Shown one piece after another: positions 1,982-61,512 of a DNA stretch of 64,000 nucleotides. Below the pieces are notes generated by a model, which was given only the letters and a program-made list of their open reading frames with translations, was not told the origin of the DNA and did no database searches. Source of the stretch: Verrucomicrobiota bacterium. Lineage in GTDB: Bacteria > Verrucomicrobiota > Verrucomicrobiia > Limisphaerales > CANJSG01. How positions within the stretch are numbered: position 1 is the stretch's first letter; the number at the start of each line of letters is the position of its first letter. The position numbers and the translations under genes were made by a program. The stretch is from NCBI GenBank assembly GCA_038209745.1, contig JBBQXJ010000011.1, positions 1 through 64,000 of the forward strand, in the 5' to 3' direction.

Positions 1982-3223
1982 TCATGGAACCGAAAGCGAC
2001 TTCTCCGTTCCCGACGCCTGGAAGTTCCGGATAAAGTTCGTGCCGCACATCCCGGCGATCCGTTGGATGGTCGGCCATGCTTGGGAACGCCTCTCTTCGG
2101 AAAGTCGGATGCGGTTGCCGTGGTAGGTTTCAGGGAACGCGTTGGTGCCGAACTCGGTGAGCACGGTTTCAGTCCTGTTCGAAAGCTCTGTCCAATCCGC
2201 TGGTTCCAAAGGGGCATGCTTCACCAAGGTCGCGAACGCCAGGAAACGCACGGTTTGGTCGGCTTGGGCCATATTCTCCAGCAGGTCAGGCGCGGAGACA
2301 GCGCCACCGTGTTCGAGCAACGATCTTCCTGCCCAATCACTGATGTCCCGGTCCGGATGTCCCATCAACTTGGAGAGACGACGGCCGAACCGGGTCGAGC
2401 CCATCTTGTTCAGCACGACGAGGGCCGCCAGGACTTCATGGTTCGCTTCCGACTGAAGTTTGGAGCCGAGCATCGTTTCGATCTGTCCACGTTGCGGCGA
2501 ATGCCCGGCGAATTCCGCGAGCGCGTTCCAACGATCGAAATCACGACCGTGCTTCACCGCTTCAGCGATCCGCTGCTCGACCTCCGTCTTTGAGATGGGT
2601 GCTTTGGTGTAGTTGAAGTCGGCGTCGGATGGCTGCGGCGCGTAATTTTGCAACGTTTTCAGAAGAGCCTGTCCATTCGTCCCGGACGCATCGAAGACGA
2701 TCAATGACTCGTCGAAAACGGCCGGAAAAGACGGGTTGGAGCAATGCCAGCAAAGGGTGATCTCGGCCCGCTTGAATGGGCCGGTGTAGAATCGCAGGAC
2801 GTATCCCGGTTCATGGCATCCGATGGTCCCCGGGAGAAAAGTCTGCCCTCTCCACAGTGAGGCCAACTTCCGCGCCTCATCTCCGCGGACCGTCTTGCGC
2901 TTGAAAACAAACCTCTTGTCCTCGCTCCAAGGCCATCTCCGATAGCGCGCCGTCGTCCGGAATTACAGGTCCAAGGTTTCGGATACCCAAGGCCCGAGCG
3001 AGACCACCTCAGCCGATGTCACCCATGGCAATTCCGTTCCGTATCGGCGCAAAAGGTAGTCGTCGCCGTGGCGGGAGTATTGGTTGATTTCCCACGCCGT
3101 CGAAAGCATCCAGCCGAGGATCAGTAGACCGCCGGCTTTCCAGCCAAACTTCCACAGGCGTCTACCCAATGAAGCCTGCTTTGAATCCTGGGGTGACTGC
3201 CTGTCTTTGACGGTCGCCTTCAT
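1982..3223 (-). pseudogene. Membrane-anchored HEAT-repeat-like protein interrupted by one in-frame TAA (2963-2965)
   Basis: ORFs 2963..3223 and 1982..2866 share a frame and the 32 codons between them are open; N-terminal TM helix, CHEPGY..LCWHC motif, C-terminal HEAT-like repeats. Confidence 0.6.
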
Positions 3224-3254
3224 CTATTGAACAGACCGGATCGACGGCGAATGG

Positions 3255-6200
3255 TCACGACCACTCACAAAGCCCCTCCACATACGCCGCCGATCCGTCG
3301 CGGAGCCAGCCGTCGAGCTGGGCCTGGTCCTTGAGCTGTTGGCCGCGCAGCCGGGGGACCACGACGAACTGAGTGTTGATCTCGGGCAAGGCCGTCAGGT
3401 CGCTCCACAGCTTCTCGAACTGGGCGACGGGGAAGACGTCTTCCTGGCCGTGGCCCCAACGCTTTTTCACGTCCTTCACGGTGACGTAGGTCGGCAGCTT
3501 GGCGGCCAAGGTGCGGATGGCGGCGGTGATCTTTTCCTGGGCAGCAGCGGCCGCAGCCGAAGCCGAGGCGCCTGTGCCACTACCCGAAGCCACCACGTCC
3601 TCCCGCGTCAGTCCCATCGCGGTGAGGAACTGGTCGAGATCGATCCAGGTGGTCATGGAATTGTAGTAGCTCAACCGGAATTCGTCCTCTTCACGCGGCA
3701 TGGCGAGTCCTTCGACCAGACGCGGACGGCCGTTCACGCGGGCCAAGCCACCGCCACGGTCTTCCAACCGCCGGGTGATGACCTCGAAGGTCAGGCAGGC
3801 GCCGCTCTGGATGTGTTGGCCGAGCAACGCGGCGTCCGGGCTGGCGCCGAGGGTGTCGATGTTGTGCAGCATCAACCAACGGAGCCGCGGGCGCTCGGTC
3901 AACAGCTTCGCGAGGACGCCGTTGCGGAGCAGGTTCGGCAACTCGAAGAAATGGCCGACCGGATGCAGACATTGGAGCGGGACGTTGTCGGTGTAGTCGC
4001 CGCCTTCGCCGGTGGACTTCGCCCAGTTCATCAGCGCCGCTCGCAGGCTCTCGCGGACCTTCTGCTGTTGCACGTCGAGGACCTGTTGGGGCATTTCCTC
4101 CCACTGGAAACGCAGGTCGCGCACGGTGGGAATCATCCGCAGTCCGACGCTCCTGCCCTGAGAGAGATGCAGCGGGCCTTCGTAGCCATAGTGCTTCATC
4201 CGCGACAGGAACTCGGCGGTCGGGCCCTGGGTGAGGTAGCTGGTGGTGAAGATGTGGGGAATGGCCGCGCCATGGACGCGGCCGGCTTTGCGGGACTTGG
4301 CCAGGTGCGTCTCGATGAAGGTGCGGTGCTTTCCACCGAGCTTGGCGTAGGGATGCAGCGCCTTGCAGGTGCCGGCGCCGCCGGTCCAACGAGAACCCGC
4401 GCCGGCGGCCAGGGTGACCACGGCGAATTCGCCGTTGCGGAGAGCGGCTTCGCCGAGGGCGGCAGTGGCACCGGCGGCCTCGCCTGTGGCCGGCGCGGCA
4501 GGCGCCCCCGCCTGCCGGCCTGCGGTGCCGCAGCCCAGTCGGTATTCAGAGTCCTTGAGCCGCGCCTTCGACGGGTTTTCGGCGATGTACCGACCGAACC
4601 GTTCCCACTGGTCCCCGTCTCGCACGATGTGGTCGAAGGATTCGTCCTGCCAAACCGTGCTGTCGCTGAGACCCAGTTTTTTGAACGTGTGGGCGGTGAC
4701 GGATTTCCAGCCCTGGATGATCCCGCTCAGGGAATGTTCACCCAGCGGCCGGACCAGCACGTGGACGTGGTTGGGCATGACCACGTAGCGGCCGAGAGCG
4801 TAGTGTTGGCCGTCAAAGTGGCGGAGGCAGCGTTCCACTTCGTCCGCAGCGGCGGCGGTTCGCAGAAGGCAGACTCCGAATCCGTGATCGGTTTCCTCCT
4901 CGAACTTGGCGGTGAAGAGCGCGGTGGCTTCTTCAAGCGCTTCTTCGGAAACGGGCTGGGGAAGGCGTTTGAGGTGATCGGCTTTTTCGGCACGCCAGCG
5001 TTCCACCTTCTCCTTGGGCATCGCGTCGGCCAAGCGGAGGGTCACGAAGCAGGTGCAGCCCTCCTGCCGCCAGGGCGGGAGGTTGCGCTGGGAGATGGCG
5101 GCGGGGCGGTCTTTGTCGAAGGGGGTGAACAGCGAGACTTCGGGTGAACAGGCGGGGGCGCCTGTTTGACTGGTCCCAGGCGGGGGCGCCTGCGCCACTA
5201 CCACTCGCTGGCCGGCTGCGCCGCCCATCTGCGTTCCGTCCAAGCGCACCACGTCCCCGTCCTTCACATCTTCGATGCGGGTATCGGCGCGGAGGCGGTT
5301 TTGAGCGAGGCCGATGCGGCCTTCCCGCATGTCGGAGCGGATCTGCTCGTGCTGGGCCCGGTCGAAGCCATTGCGATCAAGCAACTCGTGCAGCGTGGCG
5401 CCGTCGGAACTGCCGGACTTGCCCCGGGGCATGAGGGCGTCGAAGAGCGTCTGGACCATGCCGCGCAGCTCGGGTCTGGTGCGGCAGGCGGCTCCGAAAA
5501 TATCGAGCTCGGTGCGGCGGCTGGCGGGCAGCTCGGAGCGTTCGGTGCGGAGGAGCTTGGGCAGGACGAGCGCGTAGTAGCCGGAGGGCATGAGCGCGTC
5601 TTCGCCGGTGAGCAGATCGGCGAAAGTGCCGTTTTCGTTGATGGCGTAGTCGAAGACGACGGGGTCCATCGCGAAGGGCAGCGAGGCGCTGAGTTCGCGC
5701 TTCGTCTCCAGCATGATCTCCTTCAACCGATCCTGGGCCTCCAGCTTGCGGTGCGGCGCGAAGATGAAGCCCATGCCGCCGCCGGACATGCCGCCGAGCA
5801 TCCAGAAGCCCCAGAAATCGCCGCCGAACTCGGCCTCGCACTTGGCGATGAGCTGTTCGGTGAAATAGGTCGAAGCCCAGGGAATGATGGTCTGGAGGGG
5901 CTCGCGGAAGTTGCGCGTGGTGGCGGCGCCTAGCGCCTTGATGTCGCCGCGCTTCAACGCGGAGATCACTTCGTCCAACACGGTCAACGCGTCCTGCCGA
6001 CCGGCCCACTCGGCGCTGGAACGGAGGAGGTATTTCTCCGTCACCATTTCGAGGATGGGGCCGACGTTCTGGGCCATGCCGCCGTGGACGACGACGAGGG
6101 AATCCATCAGCGCCTTGCGGGCGGACTCGGGGATTTCCTCGCGGCTGAAAACGTGGTGGACCGGCATCAGCCGGCCCCGGGAAACACCGAACTCGGGATC

Positions 6201-7472
6201 GCTCTCGGCCGAGGGAACGCCGGTGATCAGCTTGATGCCGGGCCAGACGCCGCCGGAATCCTGCCAACCACCTCCGGAGCCGCCGATCCATTCGCCGAGC
6301 AGCGCGCGGGCAAGGACGAGACGGCGATCGGGTTCGGACAAGGAACCCGTCAGCGCACGGCTTCCAGTCGTGGCCCAGCCGCCCTCGCCCGTGCGACTAC
6401 GATCAACAGCGGCCGTCTCTTCGCCGGTCGTCTGGCCGGTGGCCCTCATACAGACGCTGATGAGCGAGCCGAGAAGGTTGGTGCTGACGGCGAGACGGGA
6501 GCCTTTGGGGATGTCGTTGACGCTGGAGACGATTTCCAGACCGCGCCCTTCACCGACCATCTGGGCCAGCAGATCGGCCAGGGATTGACCGGAACCTTCA
6601 ATGCCCGGCGGCACGATGCCGGAGGCGATGACGGCGGCCTTCAGCAGGCCGAGGTAGTCCTTCGCGAAGTCGAAAACGTCGCCCAGCGAGGTGACGTCGG
6701 CGGTCGCCCCCAGATCGACGGAAGTGAGCCGCAGGACCGGCTCGTCGATCACCCGCAGCCACGCGCTGACGGGAGGACGCGGCGCGGCGTCGCGACCGTG
6801 GACACCGAGGTCGACTGAGATGTTGATGACCTTGGCGCCCTCGGGGAAATCCATGCCGAGGAAGAAGATGTCGGACCACGCGGAATGCGTGAGATCCATG
6901 CGGACGGGCGTCTGTTCGCGGAGGATCGGGAAGGTGCCGTCGGCGCCGCGCTGAAGCAGTTGCGGCCGGATGCGGAGCGGCTGATCGGCGGGATGGCCCA
7001 TGCGGAACATCCATTGATTGCCGCGCACGGTGCGCACGCTGCGCCGGACCTGGTCGGCCAAAGTCTGGAAAGCGAGCCGATGATAGGAAGCCGAGAGCGC
7101 GGAGCAGAGACCGTCGCTGGGGCCGAGCTTTTGTTGGTCGCCGAGGAAGGTGTCGATGGCTTCCTCGAAGCGGCGATGGAGGAGTTGCTCGAACCCGTGG
7201 AAGGGGATGAGGGCCGGGGGCTGGTTTCCGATTCCGGATGCCTGATACCGGATGCCGGAGACCAGCTTCGCGGGAAGATGGAAGCGATGGATGGAGGAGA
7301 GGAAAAAGAGCGCGCGGACGCGTTCGTAGAGGTTCTCGGCTTGGCGGCGGAAGACGTCGAGCTCCGTACAGGCGTCGAGCAGTTCGTCAACGGAAGCGGC
7401 TTGGGCGAAGGCTTCCAGCGACCGGTTGCGAACCGCGTCGTCCTGGGAGGTGATGATCGAGATCAGGTTCAT
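3255..7472 (-). CDS. GHMP sugar kinase (fucokinase-like) / UDP-sugar pyrophosphorylase fusion with in-frame RAYT insertion (1405 aa)
   Basis: Start MNLISIITS at 7472; kinase motifs PVRMDL..WSD, IPKGSRLAVS, GGGWQD, GGMSGGG; C-terminal LAAGAGSRW, HPVGH, HNIDTLG, GGGL, QFEKL. Confidence 0.8.
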   Translation of the reverse strand: MNLISIITSQDDAVRNRSLEAFAQAASVDELLDACTELDVFRRQAENLYERVRALFFLSSIHRFHLPAKLVSGIRYQASGIGNQPPALIPFHGFEQLLHRRFEEAIDTFLGDQQKLGPSDGLCSALSASYHRLAFQTLADQVRRSVRTVRGNQWMFRMGHPADQPLRIRPQLLQRGADGTFPILREQTPVRMDLTHSAWSDIFFLGMDFPEGAKVINISVDLGVHGRDAAPRPPVSAWLRVIDEPVLRLTSVDLGATADVTSLGDVFDFAKDYLGLLKAAVIASGIVPPGIEGSGQSLADLLAQMVGEGRGLEIVSSVNDIPKGSRLAVSTNLLGSLISVCMRATGQTTGEETAAVDRSRTGEGGWATTGSRALTGSLSEPDRRLVLARALLGEWIGGSGGGWQDSGGVWPGIKLITGVPSAESDPEFGVSRGRLMPVHHVFSREEIPESARKALMDSLVVVHGGMAQNVGPILEMVTEKYLLRSSAEWAGRQDALTVLDEVISALKRGDIKALGAATTRNFREPLQTIIPWASTYFTEQLIAKCEAEFGGDFWGFWMLGGMSGGGMGFIFAPHRKLEAQDRLKEIMLETKRELSASLPFAMDPVVFDYAINENGTFADLLTGEDALMPSGYYALVLPKLLRTERSELPASRRTELDIFGAACRTRPELRGMVQTLFDALMPRGKSGSSDGATLHELLDRNGFDRAQHEQIRSDMREGRIGLAQNRLRADTRIEDVKDGDVVRLDGTQMGGAAGQRVVVAQAPPPGTSQTGAPACSPEVSLFTPFDKDRPAAISQRNLPPWRQEGCTCFVTLRLADAMPKEKVERWRAEKADHLKRLPQPVSEEALEEATALFTAKFEEETDHGFGVCLLRTAAAADEVERCLRHFDGQHYALGRYVVMPNHVHVLVRPLGEHSLSGIIQGWKSVTAHTFKKLGLSDSTVWQDESFDHIVRDGDQWERFGRYIAENPSKARLKDSEYRLGCGTAGRQAGAPAAPATGEAAGATAALGEAALRNGEFAVVTLAAGAGSRWTGGAGTCKALHPYAKLGGKHRTFIETHLAKSRKAGRVHGAAIPHIFTTSYLTQGPTAEFLSRMKHYGYEGPLHLSQGRSVGLRMIPTVRDLRFQWEEMPQQVLDVQQQKVRESLRAALMNWAKSTGEGGDYTDNVPLQCLHPVGHFFELPNLLRNGVLAKLLTERPRLRWLMLHNIDTLGASPDAALLGQHIQSGACLTFEVITRRLEDRGGGLARVNGRPRLVEGLAMPREEDEFRLSYYNSMTTWIDLDQFLTAMGLTREDVVASGSGTGASASAAAAAAQEKITAAIRTLAAKLPTYVTVKDVKKRWGHGQEDVFPVAQFEKLWSDLTALPEINTQFVVVPRLRGQQLKDQAQLDGWLRDGSAAYVEGLCEWS
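3561..3583 (-). repeat. GTAG-type REP half-copy inside coding sequence
   Basis: Minus strand GTAGTGGCACAGGCGCCTCGGCT; translated as GSGTGASA in the host ORF. Confidence 0.7.
4462..4516 (+). repeat. Two REP hairpins at the downstream flank of the RAYT domain
   Basis: GCAG-TGGCACCGGCGGCCTCGCCTGTG (4462-4488) and GGCAGGCGCCCCCGCCTGCC (4497-4516). Confidence 0.75.
5147..5201 (-). repeat. Two REP hairpins at the upstream flank of the RAYT domain
   Basis: Minus strand GTAG-TGGCGCAGGCGCCCCCGCCTG (5177-5201) and AACAGGCGCCCCCGCCTGTT (5147-5166); 16-bp core is identical to 4499-4514 in inverted orientation. Confidence 0.8.
6367..6400. repeat. Degenerate REP palindrome inside the kinase domain
   Basis: GTCGTGGCCCAGCCG-CCCT-CGCCCGTGCGACTAC, a decayed form of GTAGTGGCACAGGCG...CGCCTGTGCCACTAC. 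Confidence 0.6.
7221..7262. repeat. Six imperfect 7-bp tandem repeats, in frame (42 nt)
   Basis: CTGGTTT CCGATTC CGGATGC CTGATAC CGGATGC CGGAGAC; encodes VSGIRYQASGIGNQ. Confidence 0.6.
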
Positions 7473-7495
7473 GGACGTGCGAAGCGGAGATGGAC

Positions 7496-8335
7496 TCAGC
7501 GGTTGGCCAGGAGATCGACGAGGCCGGTCAATACTTCGTCGCGGTCGCCGCCGGAGAGCGCAAGGGCGAGCTGGGCGGTGAGCAGACCGTATTTGTGGCC
7601 GATGTCGTAGCGGCGGCCATCGATCTCGAGGGCGAGGTAGCGCTCGGAGCGGACGGACTTGGCGAGGGCGGGGCTGAGATGCACGCCGCCTTTCGCGCCG
7701 TAGAGGCCGACCAGTTCGTCGAGCAGGTGGAACACGCCGGGAGTCAGAACGTGCATGCCGAAGAAGCAGAGGTAGTGGCCGGCGCGCAGGCCGGGAACGA
7801 TCAGTCGCTGCTCGGCCTCGGTGGGTGTCGGCTTCTCGATGACCGCGTCCACCTGGTAAACGTGGCCGTGCGAATCGGTCAGATGTCCGCCGATCGCGCC
7901 ATAGAAGGGCAGCTTGCTCTCGTGCGTGGCCTGGACGGCGGAGACGATGCACTCCTCGCGGCTCGCCAGTTCGACCAATTGTTGGGCGCAGCTCTGGGCC
8001 GTGCGGCTGAGGTAGACGTGGTCGCCGACCATGAGCAAAGCGGGTTTGCCCGCGGTGAAGTCCTTCGCGAGCCAGATTGCATGGCCGTAACCGAGACGGT
8101 CCTTCTGCTCCAGAAACTGGAGCCGCGGAGCATGCTGGCCGGCGGCGGCGCGATAGGCCGCCTCGTCGCCTGGCTGGATGACGACCGCGATCTCCTCGAT
8201 GCCAGCTTTGAGCGCTTCCTCGATGATGACGGCGAGGGCGGTCTTGGTGGCGCCGTCGCGGTCGACGAGCGTTTGGAGGGGGAGCGTGCGCTGGTTGGCG
8301 CCGGCGGCGGTGATGATGGCCTTGCGTATTTCCAC
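7496..8335 (-). CDS. GalU-like sugar-1-phosphate nucleotidyltransferase
   Basis: IRKAIITAAG, Q..RLGYGHA, VGDH, IEKP, RYDIG motifs; the usual G.GTR..P.TK motif is altered to GANQRTLP. Confidence 0.75.
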   Translation of the reverse strand: MEIRKAIITAAGANQRTLPLQTLVDRDGATKTALAVIIEEALKAGIEEIAVVIQPGDEAAYRAAAGQHAPRLQFLEQKDRLGYGHAIWLAKDFTAGKPALLMVGDHVYLSRTAQSCAQQLVELASREECIVSAVQATHESKLPFYGAIGGHLTDSHGHVYQVDAVIEKPTPTEAEQRLIVPGLRAGHYLCFFGMHVLTPGVFHLLDELVGLYGAKGGVHLSPALAKSVRSERYLALEIDGRRYDIGHKYGLLTAQLALALSGGDRDEVLTGLVDLLANR

Positions 8336-8466
8336 GGTTTTATCGTTCTGGTTTCAGAATCTTTCGGAGGCTCACAGACCGACTTGAGGGCGTCAACGCG
8401 GCCGAACCGACTGTCGAGGCCTCTTTCCGCTCGTCCTCGGAGGCGGCGCCTTCGCATACTCCGGGC

Positions 8467-8946
8467 ATGGTCCATGTTGGCATCGGTTATGACGTTCATC
8501 CGCTGGTCGCCGGGAGGAAGCTCATCCTCGGCGGCGTCGAGATTCCCCACACGAAGGGGCTGGAAGGGCATTCCGACGCGGACGCCCTGATGCATGCGCT
8601 CACCGACGCGGTGCTCGGCGCCCTGGGCGAGGGCGACATCGGGCACTTTTTCCCGAACACCGATCCACGCTGGAAGGACGCCCCCAGCTCGACGTTCCTC
8701 AAGGAAGCGGCCCGCCAGGTGAGTTTCCACAATGGCCGGATCGTCAACGTGGATGTCTCGCTCGCGTGCGAGGCGCCCAAGATCAATCCGCACATCGAAA
8801 AGATGAAGTTTGCGATCTCCGAGGCGCTCGGGATCAATCCGAAGCGCGTCGGCATCAAGGCCACGACCAATGAGCGGCTCGGTTTCATCGGACGCGAAGA
8901 AGGCATCGCCGCAATGGCCGTTGCCGCGGTGGACCTCCCGGAATAA
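8467..8946 (+). CDS. ispF: 2-C-methyl-D-erythritol 2,4-cyclodiphosphate synthase
   Basis: VGIGYDVH, GHSDAD, GDIG, KATTNE.LGF.GR.EG. Confidence 0.97.
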   Translation: MVHVGIGYDVHPLVAGRKLILGGVEIPHTKGLEGHSDADALMHALTDAVLGALGEGDIGHFFPNTDPRWKDAPSSTFLKEAARQVSFHNGRIVNVDVSLACEAPKINPHIEKMKFAISEALGINPKRVGIKATTNERLGFIGREEGIAAMAVAAVDLPE

Positions 8947-8951
8947 CGACC

Positions 8952-9224
8952 ATGCACAAGAACGAGATCGGGTGGACCCTGCGGCTGGAAGACGGCACGA
9001 AAATCAGCGCGTATGCCCAGCATCGCGGCGACCAATGGCTCATTTTCCACCAGGGGAAACGCTTCGACAACTGGGAACCCATCAAGGAACCGCCTTTGGA
9101 GGACTGGCTCGCCCTGCTCGACGCCGTCCGCCGCCGCATCGCGCGCAACATGCTCCAACCGGAGGAAGACGGGCGTCTGCTTAAGCGCATCCGGCAGGAG
9201 TTTCCCGCCGCGAAAGTGGACTAG
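8952..9224 (+). CDS. Hypothetical protein
   Basis: 90-aa ORF directly after ispF with genome-typical codon usage. Confidence 0.6.
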   Translation: MHKNEIGWTLRLEDGTKISAYAQHRGDQWLIFHQGKRFDNWEPIKEPPLEDWLALLDAVRRRIARNMLQPEEDGRLLKRIRQEFPAAKVD

Positions 9225-9297
9225 ACTTTCGAAGGACCAGGGCCGGGGCCCCATATCCAGACGAGCCGTTCGGCCTTTGATTTCAACGCGTTGTGCA

Positions 9298-10092
9298 ATG
9301 AAGAATGCCCCGCTGATCCTCATCACCCCGAGCGTCGAGCCCAAGGGAAGGGAGTTCGCCGATCCTTCCTGCAGCCTGTCGGACTGCTACACCCGCTCGA
9401 TCGTGCGCGCCGGAGGCATCCCATGGATCATGAGCCGGGAGACGGATCCCGCCGTGATCGCCGAATCCGTCCGCCGCGCCGACGGCGTCATGCTGACCGG
9501 CGGCGAAGACATCAATCCCGCGCTCTATCGCAAGTCCACGACCGCAAAACTGGCCGGCAAGCTCGGCCCGCTCGATCCCGCCCGCGACTTCGTGGAGGTC
9601 GCCGTCATCGACGAGGTTTTCCGCCAAAGAAAGCCGCTGCTCGCCATTTGCCGGGGCCACCAACTCCTGAATGTCGCGCTCGGCGGCACGCTGCTGGTGG
9701 ACATTCCGACGCAGCGTCCGGAGGCGATCAACCACAACCGGTGCGACCTAAAGGATGAACCCGCCCACGAGGTGCGACTGGATCCAGACAGCCTGTTGGC
9801 GGCCGTTTGGGGAACTTCCACCGCAGGCTCCGGACGACGCAAATCAAGAAGAGGCCCCGTTTTCCAAGTCAACTCAGCCCACCACCAAGCCGTCGACAAG
9901 ATCGCGGCGCCGCTGCGCGTTACCGGCGTCTGCCCCGAAGACGGCATCGTCGAGGTGATGGAACTCCGGGAGCCATTGCTTCCTTACTTGTTGTCGATAC
10001 AGTGCCATCCGGAACGATTGGTTGACCGATCCCCGGGATTCTTGGAACTTTTTCGGACATTTACTCTGTCGTGCACAAATCGCGGCCAATAA
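9298..10092 (+). CDS. Peptidase C26 / gamma-glutamyl-gamma-aminobutyrate hydrolase family glutamine amidotransferase
   Basis: LTGGEDI, LAICRGHQLLNVALGGTL, VNSAHHQA, QCHPE. Confidence 0.9.
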   Translation: MKNAPLILITPSVEPKGREFADPSCSLSDCYTRSIVRAGGIPWIMSRETDPAVIAESVRRADGVMLTGGEDINPALYRKSTTAKLAGKLGPLDPARDFVEVAVIDEVFRQRKPLLAICRGHQLLNVALGGTLLVDIPTQRPEAINHNRCDLKDEPAHEVRLDPDSLLAAVWGTSTAGSGRRKSRRGPVFQVNSAHHQAVDKIAAPLRVTGVCPEDGIVEVMELREPLLPYLLSIQCHPERLVDRSPGFLELFRTFTLSCTNRGQ

Positions 10093-10096
10093 CTCT

Positions 10097-11437
10097 ATGA
10101 AGGCAAAGGTCATGGTCGTAGACGACTCGGACGAAATCCGGGTCTTGGTAAACACTATTCTCCAACTCGGGGGCTACGATCCTTTGCTCAAGGCCAATGC
10201 CGCCGAGTTGAAGGAAAGCCTTTCGTCCGGTCCCCAGCCCGACATCGTCCTGCTGGATCTCGTCCTGCCCGACGGCGACGGACTGGAGCTGCTGCCCCAG
10301 ATCAAGCGCCAGTGGCCCGAGACCGAGGTCATCGTCCTCACCGGCTTCGCCACCTTCGATCTGGCGGTCGAAGCGACCAAACGCGGCGCCTACCACTTCC
10401 AGGCAAAGCCCTTCGACCACAAGTCGCTCCTCATCATGATCGAGCGCGCGCTCGAGCATAAGCGGCTCAACGAAGAGGCCAGTTCCCTCCGCCGCGCGCT
10501 CTCCACCATGAGCGGCGGCATGTCGCCCATTTTCCAGAGCCCCTCGATGAAGAACGTCCTCCGGACGCTCGAACGTGTCGCCCCCAGCGACGTCTCCGTC
10601 CTCATCGTCGGAGAAAGCGGAACTGGCAAAGAGGTCATCGCCGATCTTCTCCACGCCATGAGCCCGCGGAACAAGGGCCCCATGATCCGGGTCAACTGCG
10701 CCGCCTTCCCCCGCGAACTCATCGAGAGCGAGCTCTTCGGCGCTTTGAAGGGCTCCTACACCGGGTCCACCCAGGACCGTGAAGGCCTTTTCCGCCAAGC
10801 CGAAGGCGGCACCCTCTTCCTCGACGAAATCTCCGAGATGCCCGCCGACACCCAGAGCAAGCTGCTCCGCGTCCTCCAGGACAAGGAAGTCCGACCCGTC
10901 GGCGGCAAGTCCCCCTACAAGATCGACTGCCGCGTGATCGCGGCCACCAACCGGCCCGTCGACCAGGCCATCAAAGAGGGCAAGCTGCGCGAAGATCTCT
11001 ACTACCGAATCAGCACCGTCAGCATTTCGCTGCCCCCGCTTCGGGAACGCCGCGAGGACATCCTCCCGTTGGCCAACGCCTTTCTGAAGCGTTTCGCCGG
11101 CCAGGCCGGCCGCGACATCACGTGCTTCAGCCCCGCCGCCGCCGAAATGCTCCGGACCTTCGATTGGCCCGGCAACGTCCGGCAGCTCCAGAACGAGGTC
11201 CAGCGCACCGTCCTCATGGCCGAGGGCAACCTCGCCGACGTGCAGGACCTCTCCATCACCACCGTGCTGAATCCGGCCGAAGTGGAAGACCTGACCCTGA
11301 TGGAAGCCATGGAGCGCAACACCATCGTGCAGGTGTTGAAGGAAACCGGCGGCAACAAGCTCGAAGCCGCCAAGCGCCTCGGGATCGGCCGCCAGACGCT
11401 CTACAACAAGATCAAGATGTATTCGATCGAGACCTGA
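10097..11437 (+). CDS. NtrC-family sigma-54-type response regulator (REC-AAA+-Fis HTH)
   Basis: VVDD/LLDL receiver, GESGTGKE, LFLDEI, WPGNVRQLQN, C-terminal HTH; GAFTGA loop reads GSYTGS. Confidence 0.92.
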   Translation: MKAKVMVVDDSDEIRVLVNTILQLGGYDPLLKANAAELKESLSSGPQPDIVLLDLVLPDGDGLELLPQIKRQWPETEVIVLTGFATFDLAVEATKRGAYHFQAKPFDHKSLLIMIERALEHKRLNEEASSLRRALSTMSGGMSPIFQSPSMKNVLRTLERVAPSDVSVLIVGESGTGKEVIADLLHAMSPRNKGPMIRVNCAAFPRELIESELFGALKGSYTGSTQDREGLFRQAEGGTLFLDEISEMPADTQSKLLRVLQDKEVRPVGGKSPYKIDCRVIAATNRPVDQAIKEGKLREDLYYRISTVSISLPPLRERREDILPLANAFLKRFAGQAGRDITCFSPAAAEMLRTFDWPGNVRQLQNEVQRTVLMAEGNLADVQDLSITTVLNPAEVEDLTLMEAMERNTIVQVLKETGGNKLEAAKRLGIGRQTLYNKIKMYSIET

Positions 11438-61397: not shown

Positions 61398-61512
61398 TTA
61401 ACCACAGATGGACACAGATGGACACAGATCCGAAGTAGGACAGGCATCTTGCCTGTCCCGAGGTCTGAGCGTGCCCGCAGCCAGTGGACGCCCCCTCACC
61501 CGGGCCCTCTCC
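61398..61512. repeat. Cluster of three different repeat stubs
   Basis: (CACAGATGGA)x2.7 at 61403-61429; GTAG-GACAGGCA-TCT-TGCCTGTCC at 61435-61458; CCCCCTCACCCGGGCCCTCTCC at 61491-61512. Confidence 0.7.

Follow-up and report, generated by a model that had tools for sequence, protein, structure and literature searches.

A REP-flanked RAYT transposase nested in frame within a fucokinase-like/UGPase-like gene of Verrucomicrobiota: a candidate in-frame REPtron

Introduction

How does a transposase come to be encoded, without a stop codon of its own, in the middle of a metabolic enzyme, and what would keep it there? The question is raised by a 64,000-nt stretch of DNA from a Verrucomicrobiota bacterium (positions 1 to 64,000 of contig JBBQXJ010000011.1, assembly GCA_038209745.1; hereafter "the window"). 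In it, a single minus-strand gene (the host gene) encodes a fucokinase-like half and a UDP-glucose pyrophosphorylase (UGPase)-like half, separated by a cassette in which the HUH/Y1 domain of a tyrosine transposase of the kind associated with repetitive extragenic palindromes (REPs), known as a RAYT, lies between inverted REP hairpins. An earlier note on this DNA had proposed a frame-preserving element whose REP ends double as Gly/Ala/Pro linkers, giving a kinase-transposase-pyrophosphorylase fusion; our analysis supports this, with translation of the fusion being predicted from sequence. The explanation that we consider probable is that the cassette is an in-frame REPtron, read through as an internal domain and shielded in an intein-like manner, with a single capture and later losses and swaps.

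In the usual view, RAYTs are "domesticated" transposases that exist as free-standing, single-copy genes and are passed on vertically; what benefit they bring to the cell is still debated. A stop-less RAYT in a housekeeping enzyme, apparently under selection across a wide group of Verrucomicrobiota yet swapped or lost among congeners, would offer a different picture of persistence, in which the element hides in a frame that is too costly for the cell to break. The REPtrons with which we compare it are RAYT/TnpA-REP genes flanked by REPs, as described in the available portions of earlier reports (4ER8; Di Nocera 2013, PMC3733652; Quentin 2018, PMC6006769; Corneloup 2021, PMC8266576).

Results

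The cassette is stop-free and bounded by inverted REP hairpins

Taken between its outermost REP feet, the cassette spans 4464-5201 (-), i.e., 738 nt or exactly 246 codons without a stop, and occupies the linker that joins the fucokinase-like half of the host gene to the UGPase-like half (Table 1). A doublet of REP hairpins is followed by the RAYT (HUH/Y1) domain and then by a second, inverted doublet, the outer REP of which has decayed; the junctions are variable Gly/Ala/Pro linkers. The stop-free RAYT with MPNHVH, WQDESFDH, and YIAENP motifs that the earlier note described inside a 1405-aa open reading frame (ORF) was verified with respect to both the motifs and the open frame. That the RAYT has no stop of its own likewise stands, with the qualification that possible in-frame starts (ATG 5228, GTG 5204, and GTG 5198) precede its core.

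The 16-nt REP core CAGGCGCCCCCGCCTG is present exactly at 4499-4514 (+), 5149-5164 (-), and 5177-5192 (-), as first reported, and the arms at 4498-4514 and 5177-5193 are 100% complementary over 17 nt. As single-stranded DNA, the left end forms two hairpins (z = -4.06; 0/200 shuffles as good) and the right end one strong hairpin. The original claim of two hairpins per side holds for the congeners G006 and G005, in which the outer right REP is intact, but not for the window, in which that REP (4464-4487) has decayed; in congeners, the cassette ends are ~55-nt inverted repeats of each other with two REPs per end.

That this arrangement is an artefact, arising from a chimeric contig or from two to three separate genes misread as one, is hardly credible. 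The genome to which the window belongs (G000) is a 140-contig draft, and contigs from X1, X3, and X14 end near the REPs; short-read assemblers break at REPs. Against an artefact, a single 3275-nt contig from a different study (X2 record 14) covers positions 4200-5500 unbroken with 11 differences, spanning both junctions and so answering the concern over misassembly; the identical architecture is found in 80 other proteins from several sources and in the contigs of four congeners; and 1405 codons run without a stop. A candidate empty allele in X1 (a contig joining 4344 to 5299 and skipping 954 nt) was rejected, as one of its sides comprises only 23 nt at ~90% likeness, which is too weak.

The nested domain resembles a divergent RAYT and appears to be kept by selection

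Against the Pfam family Y1_Tnp (PF01797; curated cut-off 23 bits), the insert scores 23.3-23.5 bits, barely above the cut-off, and 28 bits in the genome search; PF01797 is also precomputed for most relatives of the host protein. WQDESFDH and YIAENP are RAYT-type motifs that distinguish RAYTs from IS200 TnpA, as judged against the class 2 motifs in the available portion of PMC6006769. An AlphaFold2 model of the insert, built from 57 aligned sequences, has a mean predicted local distance difference test (pLDDT) score of 85.7, with low confidence only in the REP-encoded linkers. Its best solved match by Foldseek is 4er8_A (E 8.8e-6; probability 1.00; template-modelling [TM] scores 0.36/0.52), i.e., the RAYT of E. 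coli in complex with a REP hairpin, and the IS200, IS608, and ISDra2 transposases come next; the modest TM scores are due to the linkers and an extra helical insertion. Among solved structures, the RAYT was reached by the fold search alone. The Y1/RAYT assignment is thus matched by profile and by fold, and the model indicates a divergent RAYT subclass with a predicted inserted helical segment.

Across the cassette-bearing proteins, between which insert identity falls to ~40%, both HUH histidines, the tyrosine, and the W, E, F, and D of WQDESFDH are invariant (81/81). Nei-Gojobori dN/dS values for six congener pairs are 0.076-0.175 in the RAYT core, i.e., purifying, versus 0.08-0.135 in the host parts, and 0.12-0.175 in the RAYT of those pairs that include the window copy. 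From these sequence comparisons, the RAYT domain appears to be kept by selection, and conservation of its HUH and Tyr residues suggests that the active site is working.

The insertion site is filled, empty, or exchanged among close relatives

In the near set, comprising P0001 and its 120 best homologues (n = 121), 81 proteins are filled (insert of 251-413 aa) and the other 40 lack the segment described in the earlier note, having a linker of 14-27 aa at the same, constant site. The seven genomes of the genus include four with one cassette lineage (cassette A), one (G002) with another (cassette B, i.e., a different RAYT lineage and different REPs between identical host flanks), and two that are empty (G001 and G004), with no REP remnant discernible by eye. 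A host tree computed without the insert columns requires at least eight state changes and places an empty protein, 94% identical, as sister to the window protein, while both deep host clades are filled in all rows (68/68). The insert tree conflicts with the host tree; approximately unbiased (AU) tests, covering 44/80 inserts and using groups picked after the FastTree trees had been seen, reject insert monophyly for three host clades that are themselves well supported (p = 4e-4, 5e-4, and 2e-48). In the close pair G005 and G003, differences number 74 over ~700 nt of insert and 97 over 2160 nt of left host flank, with the step situated at the junction.

At greater distances, Y1_Tnp was detected in 0/22 long homologues (31-55% identical to an empty orthologue). 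In a rooted FastTree tree with nine distant homologues as outgroups, on long branches, the basal near-group branches are filled and the empty forms nested. Among RAYTs, eight that span the diversity of this host cluster together, apart from RAYTs of other contexts (support 82). These comparisons suggest that the cassette is the derived state, with one old capture, long vertical persistence, and later loss in one subclade plus exchange among relatives. Exchange may have proceeded through recombination in the host flanks or through the chemistry of the element itself; at cassettes A and B, recipient-type flank sequence continues to the very edge of the cassette, an observation that leans toward an element-limited event. 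Host-flank differentiation between seven filled and 12 empty close relatives is in slight excess beside the junction (0.02-0.04), a result that is uninformative with respect to recombination in the flanks.

The same data bear on whether the RAYT was instead exapted, i.e., captured once as a tethered domain that binds or cuts single-stranded DNA for the enzyme or the cell, with no role in REP mobility and with a patchiness explained by loss alone. We find this improbable. The 68/68 filled rows of the two deep host clades, the filled basal ingroup branches, the clustering of this host's RAYTs, and a purifying selection equal to that on the host halves are in keeping with it; the occupation of this site by another RAYT/REP lineage in one congener, the departure of the inserts from the host tree, and the retention of the REPs as matching inverted hairpins of a family whose dispersed copies are polymorphic between congeners (see below) are not. 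Moreover, the related RAYTs in PriA, XseA, and restriction-modification enzymes speak against a sugar-nucleotide role. Of the two options offered in the earlier note, a domesticated nuclease for a sugar-nucleotide enzyme hence fits less well than an element-like one, and an intein-like lifestyle without splicing motifs is favoured by the presence/absence pattern, cassette replacement, tree conflict, and in-frame kin in unrelated genes.

RAYTs are nested in other host genes of the phylum

When 401 sampled genomes from the phylum were searched with the RAYT core, 107 had a match at E <= 1e-15. Of the ~150 matches listed, approximately one-third by hand count fall within open frames at least 500 aa long; free-standing RAYT relatives of 200-350 aa are likewise common in the sample. 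Among 14 such frames from other genomes analysed with Pfam, Y1_Tnp shares the frame with host domains in 12, being alone in the other two. Host domains lie on both sides of Y1_Tnp in six of the 14 (PriA, three; XseA; MmeI/Eco57I-type enzymes, two) and on one side in another six (XseA, Eco57I-type, DUF1156/D12 methylase, B12-radical SAM, Mur ligase, and glucuronyl esterase). Inverted GTAG-type REPs flank the nested RAYT on both sides in 5/5 cases looked at, each with its own sequence. The possibility raised earlier of RAYTs nested in other proteins was thus realised in PriA, XseA, restriction-modification genes, and others, a host-gene list that is itself a sample, the regex screen having missed 10/29 phylum loci.

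In one XseA case (L028:1288-2784 [-], genome G245), the frame stops ~80 residues past the nested RAYT, and Pfam sees only the first 72 positions of Exonuc_VII_L, ahead of the RAYT; this cassette may have split or truncated its host gene.

The REP family of the cassette is dispersed, mostly within genes

The core of the cassette's REP family (REP-A), allowing at most one mismatch, has 21 copies genome-wide in G000 versus 0 for a reversed control, and its copy number exceeds chance. Copies often occur as doublets ~28 nt apart, resembling the cassette ends, and the foot (G)TAGTGGC with stems of 6-9 bp fits GTAG-type intragenic REPs. Outside the cassette there are 18 copies. Thirteen are inside Pfam-supported frames, namely those of the valyl- (ValRS; three), isoleucyl- (IleRS; two), and leucyl-tRNA synthetases (LeuRS; two), pyruvate carboxylase, MutS, a UvrD-like helicase, a DUF3516 helicase, and an NHL protein (two), the last being the least certain of the intragenic cases; four are in frames without a Pfam match and one is on the 5' edge of a frame encoding an oxidoreductase. 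The intragenic copies, situated mostly between Pfam domains, are read as QAPPP, GAPAC, RQAGAPA, or GGGACAT.

The REP doublet in IleRS is present in G000 and G003 and is not found in G001, G002, G004, or G005. Within the host gene itself, G005 (L004) has an extra in-frame REP insertion of ~38 residues in the UGPase half, and G006 (L005) has a REP doublet, VAQAPPPVASETGAPAC, in the N-terminal half near residue 70; at the site of the extra G005 REP, G000 reads SGSGTGASASAAAAAA, possibly a decayed remnant. The IleRS polymorphism and these extra host-gene REPs indicate that REP-A has been moving, or undergoing deletion, within the genus.

REP-A counts are 18-28 in the four cassette-A genomes, 11 in the cassette-B genome, and 10 and 2 in the empty genomes; as an association in seven related genomes that are 78-93% complete, the link between REP-A count and possession of cassette A is suggestive only. 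The other Y1 genes of G000 comprise two of 154 aa of the IS200 type and one of 325 aa of the HFH type (contigs C137, C12, and C23), and no REP-A match was found on the contigs of these three. The free-standing 325-aa protein (L070:1147-2124 [+], contig C23; HFH motif MSNHFHILV, and YIDLNP), for which no flanking inverted repeats were detected, is of a class distinct from the nested RAYT.

Further REP types and RAYT homologues were also encountered. A second REP type, GACAGGCAAGATGCCTGTC, is located at 61439-61457 (-) of the window, with one mismatch to the REP flanking cassette B of G002. Other RAYT homologues, 37-42% identical, are found in the congeners G004 (L015:1426-3363 [-]) and G006 (L014:265-1203 [+]), each with its own REP family (CGCGGAGCATTGCTCCGCG and GCAAGCCGGAGGCTTGC, respectively); that of G004 forms the end of a 646-aa open frame without a further Pfam match.

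The host gene and its two enzyme halves

In the ORF listing, the host gene falls in a minus-strand frame at 3255..7952 that encodes 1565 aa from a GTG. The N-terminal 160 residues of this frame, Arg/Pro-rich, look spurious, and alignment with 120 homologues places the inferred start at ATG 7472-7470, for a predicted 1405-aa protein that aligns end to end with those homologues. Its last 400 residues match Pfam UDPGP and, by profile search of the PDB, solved UGPases. The GHMP kinase half proposed in the earlier note was upheld in part. Pfam calls no GHMP kinase on the host protein itself, with only UDPGP and Y1_Tnp reported at E <= 0.01; in its favour, NCBIfam PRK13412 matches the kinase half partially (58 bits, far under the cut-off), a profile search matches this half to Fkp in its L-fucokinase part (5yys, 9iip), and the distant homologue P0159 matches GHMP_kinases_N. 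The domain order, kinase and then nucleotidyltransferase, is the reverse of that in Fkp.

In the JGI annotation, these 1400-aa enzymes bear the name "REP element-mobilizing transposase RayT". A promoter/terminator scan of 3000-8200 yielded no promoter-like site and a single terminator-like site on the opposite strand, fewer than in shuffles. Plus-strand ORFs over the cassette (3339-5147 and 5166-5933) are without a Pfam match and were treated as high-GC shadows. The ORFs adjoining the host gene (640-2866 and 7490-8793) are also without a Pfam match, and a peptidase C26/glutamine amidotransferase (GATase) protein and a sigma-54-dependent response regulator are encoded at 9013-11437 (+).

Table 1. 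Coordinates of the host gene, the cassette, and REP-A-bearing frames elsewhere in the genome (window positions unless a locus is given)
Feature	Position	Strand	Basis or remark
Host ORF, 1405 aa + stop: fucokinase-like part, nested cassette, UGPase-like part	3255..7472	-	ORF, profiles, homologue alignment
N-terminal host half, aa 1-742, with fucokinase/GHMP-like region	5247..7472	-	Partial PRK13412 match, Fkp profile match
Variable left linker RLDGTQMGGAAGQRV, with in-frame ATG 5228 and GTG 5204	5202..5246	-	Length varies among congeners
Outer left REP: foot GTAGTGGCG and hairpin CAGGCG-CCCC-CGCCTG, read as VVAQAPPP	5177..5201	-	
Inner left REP hairpin ACAGGCG-CCCC-CGCCTGT, read as TGAPAC	5148..5165	-	
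RAYT (HUH/Y1 transposase) domain core	4539..5126	-	Pfam Y1_Tnp, AlphaFold2 model, dN/dS
HUH motif MPNHVH	4761..4778	-	Both His in 81/81
WQDESFDH motif	4629..4652	-	W, E, F, D each in 81/81
YIAENP motif, catalytic tyrosine	4572..4589	-	Y in 81/81
Inner right REP hairpin, coding-strand core CAGGCGGGGGCGCCTG, read as RQAGAPA; inverted relative to left REPs	4496..4517	-	
Outer right REP, decayed, ACAGGCGAGGCCGCCGGTGCCACT; intact in G006 as ACAGGCGGGGGCGCCTGTGCCACT	4464..4487	-	
C-terminal host half, aa 1005-1405, UGPase-like nucleotidyltransferase	3258..4460	-	Pfam UDPGP, PDB UGPase profile matches
REP-A-bearing frame in G000, ValRS	L016:509-3865		
REP-A-bearing frame in G000, IleRS	L016:4093-7107		
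REP-A-bearing frame in G000, pyruvate carboxylase	L017:499-4224		
REP-A-bearing frame in G000, MutS	L018:475-3546		
REP-A-bearing frame in G000, UvrD-like helicase	L020:5-3559		
REP-A-bearing frame in G000, LeuRS	L021:4-2223		
REP-A-bearing frame in G000, NHL	L022:4-2175		
REP-A-bearing frame in G000, DUF3516 helicase	L024:595-2499		

Discussion

In the explanation that we favour, the cassette would be a REPtron, i.e., a RAYT with flanking inverted GTAG-type REP hairpins, that sits inside a host frame and not between genes. Ribosomes on the host gene would make the RAYT as an internal domain, tethered on either side by REP-encoded Gly/Ala/Pro linkers. The RAYT would bind REP hairpins on single-stranded DNA, cutting and rejoining them, and would in this manner maintain and spread its own REP family, most of which seems to persist in this genome within large housekeeping proteins, inserted in frame into their loops and linkers. 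As the UGPase half downstream would be lost through a frameshift, a stop, or an untidy deletion within the cassette, the element would be shielded, much like an intein, from the usual decay of mobile DNA. A single capture on the stem of the ortholog group would have been followed by long inheritance, and later by losses and same-site swaps with other cassette lineages.

Several points weigh against this explanation. With respect to the identity of the domain, its score against NCBIfam NF047646 (REP_Tyr_transpos) is 53.2 bits, below the cut-off of 80, over profile positions 34-136 of 146; phmmer of the insert against solved structures gave 0 matches, leaving 4ER8 unreached by sequence; and a profile of the host protein against solved structures found UGPases and Fkp only, with no 4ER8. 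With respect to its history, the AU tests have the sampling and after-the-fact grouping stated above, and the rooted tree its long outgroup branches. REP-A is also found outside the cassette-A genomes, and the cassette-B REP displays no enrichment in its own genome, G002 (7 matches versus 2-12 elsewhere). The in-frame ATG and GTG codons ahead of the RAYT core may allow internal initiation, and activity of the RAYT from within a 1405-aa protein is a prediction from sequence. Finally, the window copy is off consensus at 4/59 near-invariant columns (H>P in LPHW, Y>C, F>L, and L>W; median for the set 2, maximum 6), is on a long end branch (0.22 versus 0.03-0.07 in its sisters), and has lost one REP (outer right); this copy may be under somewhat relaxed constraint.

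These features of the window copy, i.e., its four changed columns, long end branch, and decayed outer right REP, would also be expected were the cassette a dead passenger, with an inactive transposase held in place only because frame breaks kill the UGPase half, and with the window copy decaying. We judge this unlikely: frame constraint alone conserves no residues, yet the HUH and Tyr residues are intact here and in 81/81 proteins; dN/dS remains at 0.12-0.175 in the pairs with the window copy; and its four deviations are within the range of the set (maximum 6).

A broader proposition, which we put forward tentatively and regard as possible but doubtful, is that REPtrons of the Planctomycetes-Verrucomicrobia-Chlamydiae (PVC) group lead an intein-like life without splicing. 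They would exist as stop-free, multiple-of-three units in the linkers of housekeeping proteins, borrowing host expression, being protected by the lethality of sloppy removal, and exchanging at the same site through their own single-strand chemistry (homing) and not through homologous recombination.

Beyond the persistence of RAYTs, the locus has implications for annotation, with 1400-aa enzymes being named as a RayT transposase, and for surveys, with over-long Y1 proteins having been discarded in at least one of those published, as "gene fusions or annotation errors" in the available portion of the text (Quentin 2018, PMC6006769). For protein evolution, the cassette represents a natural domain insertion with ready-made flexible linkers.

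Comparison with known systems

With REPtrons, the cassette shares the HUH/Y1 fold and motifs, in a lineage that is single-copy per genome; the flanking GTAG-type REP hairpins, inverted between the two sides and part of a family dispersed in the genome; and the possession of its own REP sequence by each RAYT lineage. It differs in being neither free-standing nor extragenic, but stop-free and in frame in the linker of another gene, such that its RAYT would be translated as an internal domain, and in having a REP family that is mostly intragenic. The cassette thus has most REPtron features and lacks that of a free-standing gene.

Rickettsia palindromic elements are in-frame intragenic palindromic repeats. 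Like these and the intragenic GTAG REPs, the REP-A copies are stop-free hairpin repeats that add 10-30 extra residues in loops, and where the known intragenic repeats are hosted by tRNA synthetases, helicases, and repair proteins, REP-A is found in ValRS, IleRS, LeuRS, MutS, and a UvrD-like protein. In the available portions of Di Nocera 2013 (PMC3733652), intragenic in-frame GTAG REPs are most numerous in the verrucomicrobium Opitutus terrae, and no mention is made of a RAYT inside another gene. The difference is that such reports cover small repeats only, whereas here a transposase gene together with its ends constitutes the in-frame insert.

Inteins with homing endonucleases are likewise (semi-)selfish coding inserts in the frame of a conserved gene, the imprecise loss of which is lethal to that gene, and they too are patchy among close relatives, with different lineages at one site. 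No Hint/splicing domain was found by Pfam in the host protein, and the insert should therefore remain in the mature protein; moreover, the enzyme is a single-strand HUH transposase as opposed to a double-strand homing endonuclease, and homing is here hypothetical. The IS200/IS605 elements (IS608 and ISDra2), the next-best structural matches, also have a Y1 HUH transposase and subterminal hairpins at both ends, but the nested transposase exceeds theirs in size, has a helical insertion, bears WQ and YIxxNP motifs of the RAYT type, and is single-copy with REP ends. As for the host, it may belong with the Fkp-like bifunctional sugar-1-kinase/NDP-sugar pyrophosphorylases, the nucleotidyltransferase being clear and the kinase half recognised by partial matches only.

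A literature search, the scope of which excluded subscription journals and the PMC3733652 supplements, did not turn up any account of a RAYT lying in frame inside a different gene. REP-flanked RAYTs and in-frame intragenic GTAG REPs have been published already; what appears to be new, as judged from the sequence, is that the RAYT unit itself is carried in frame.

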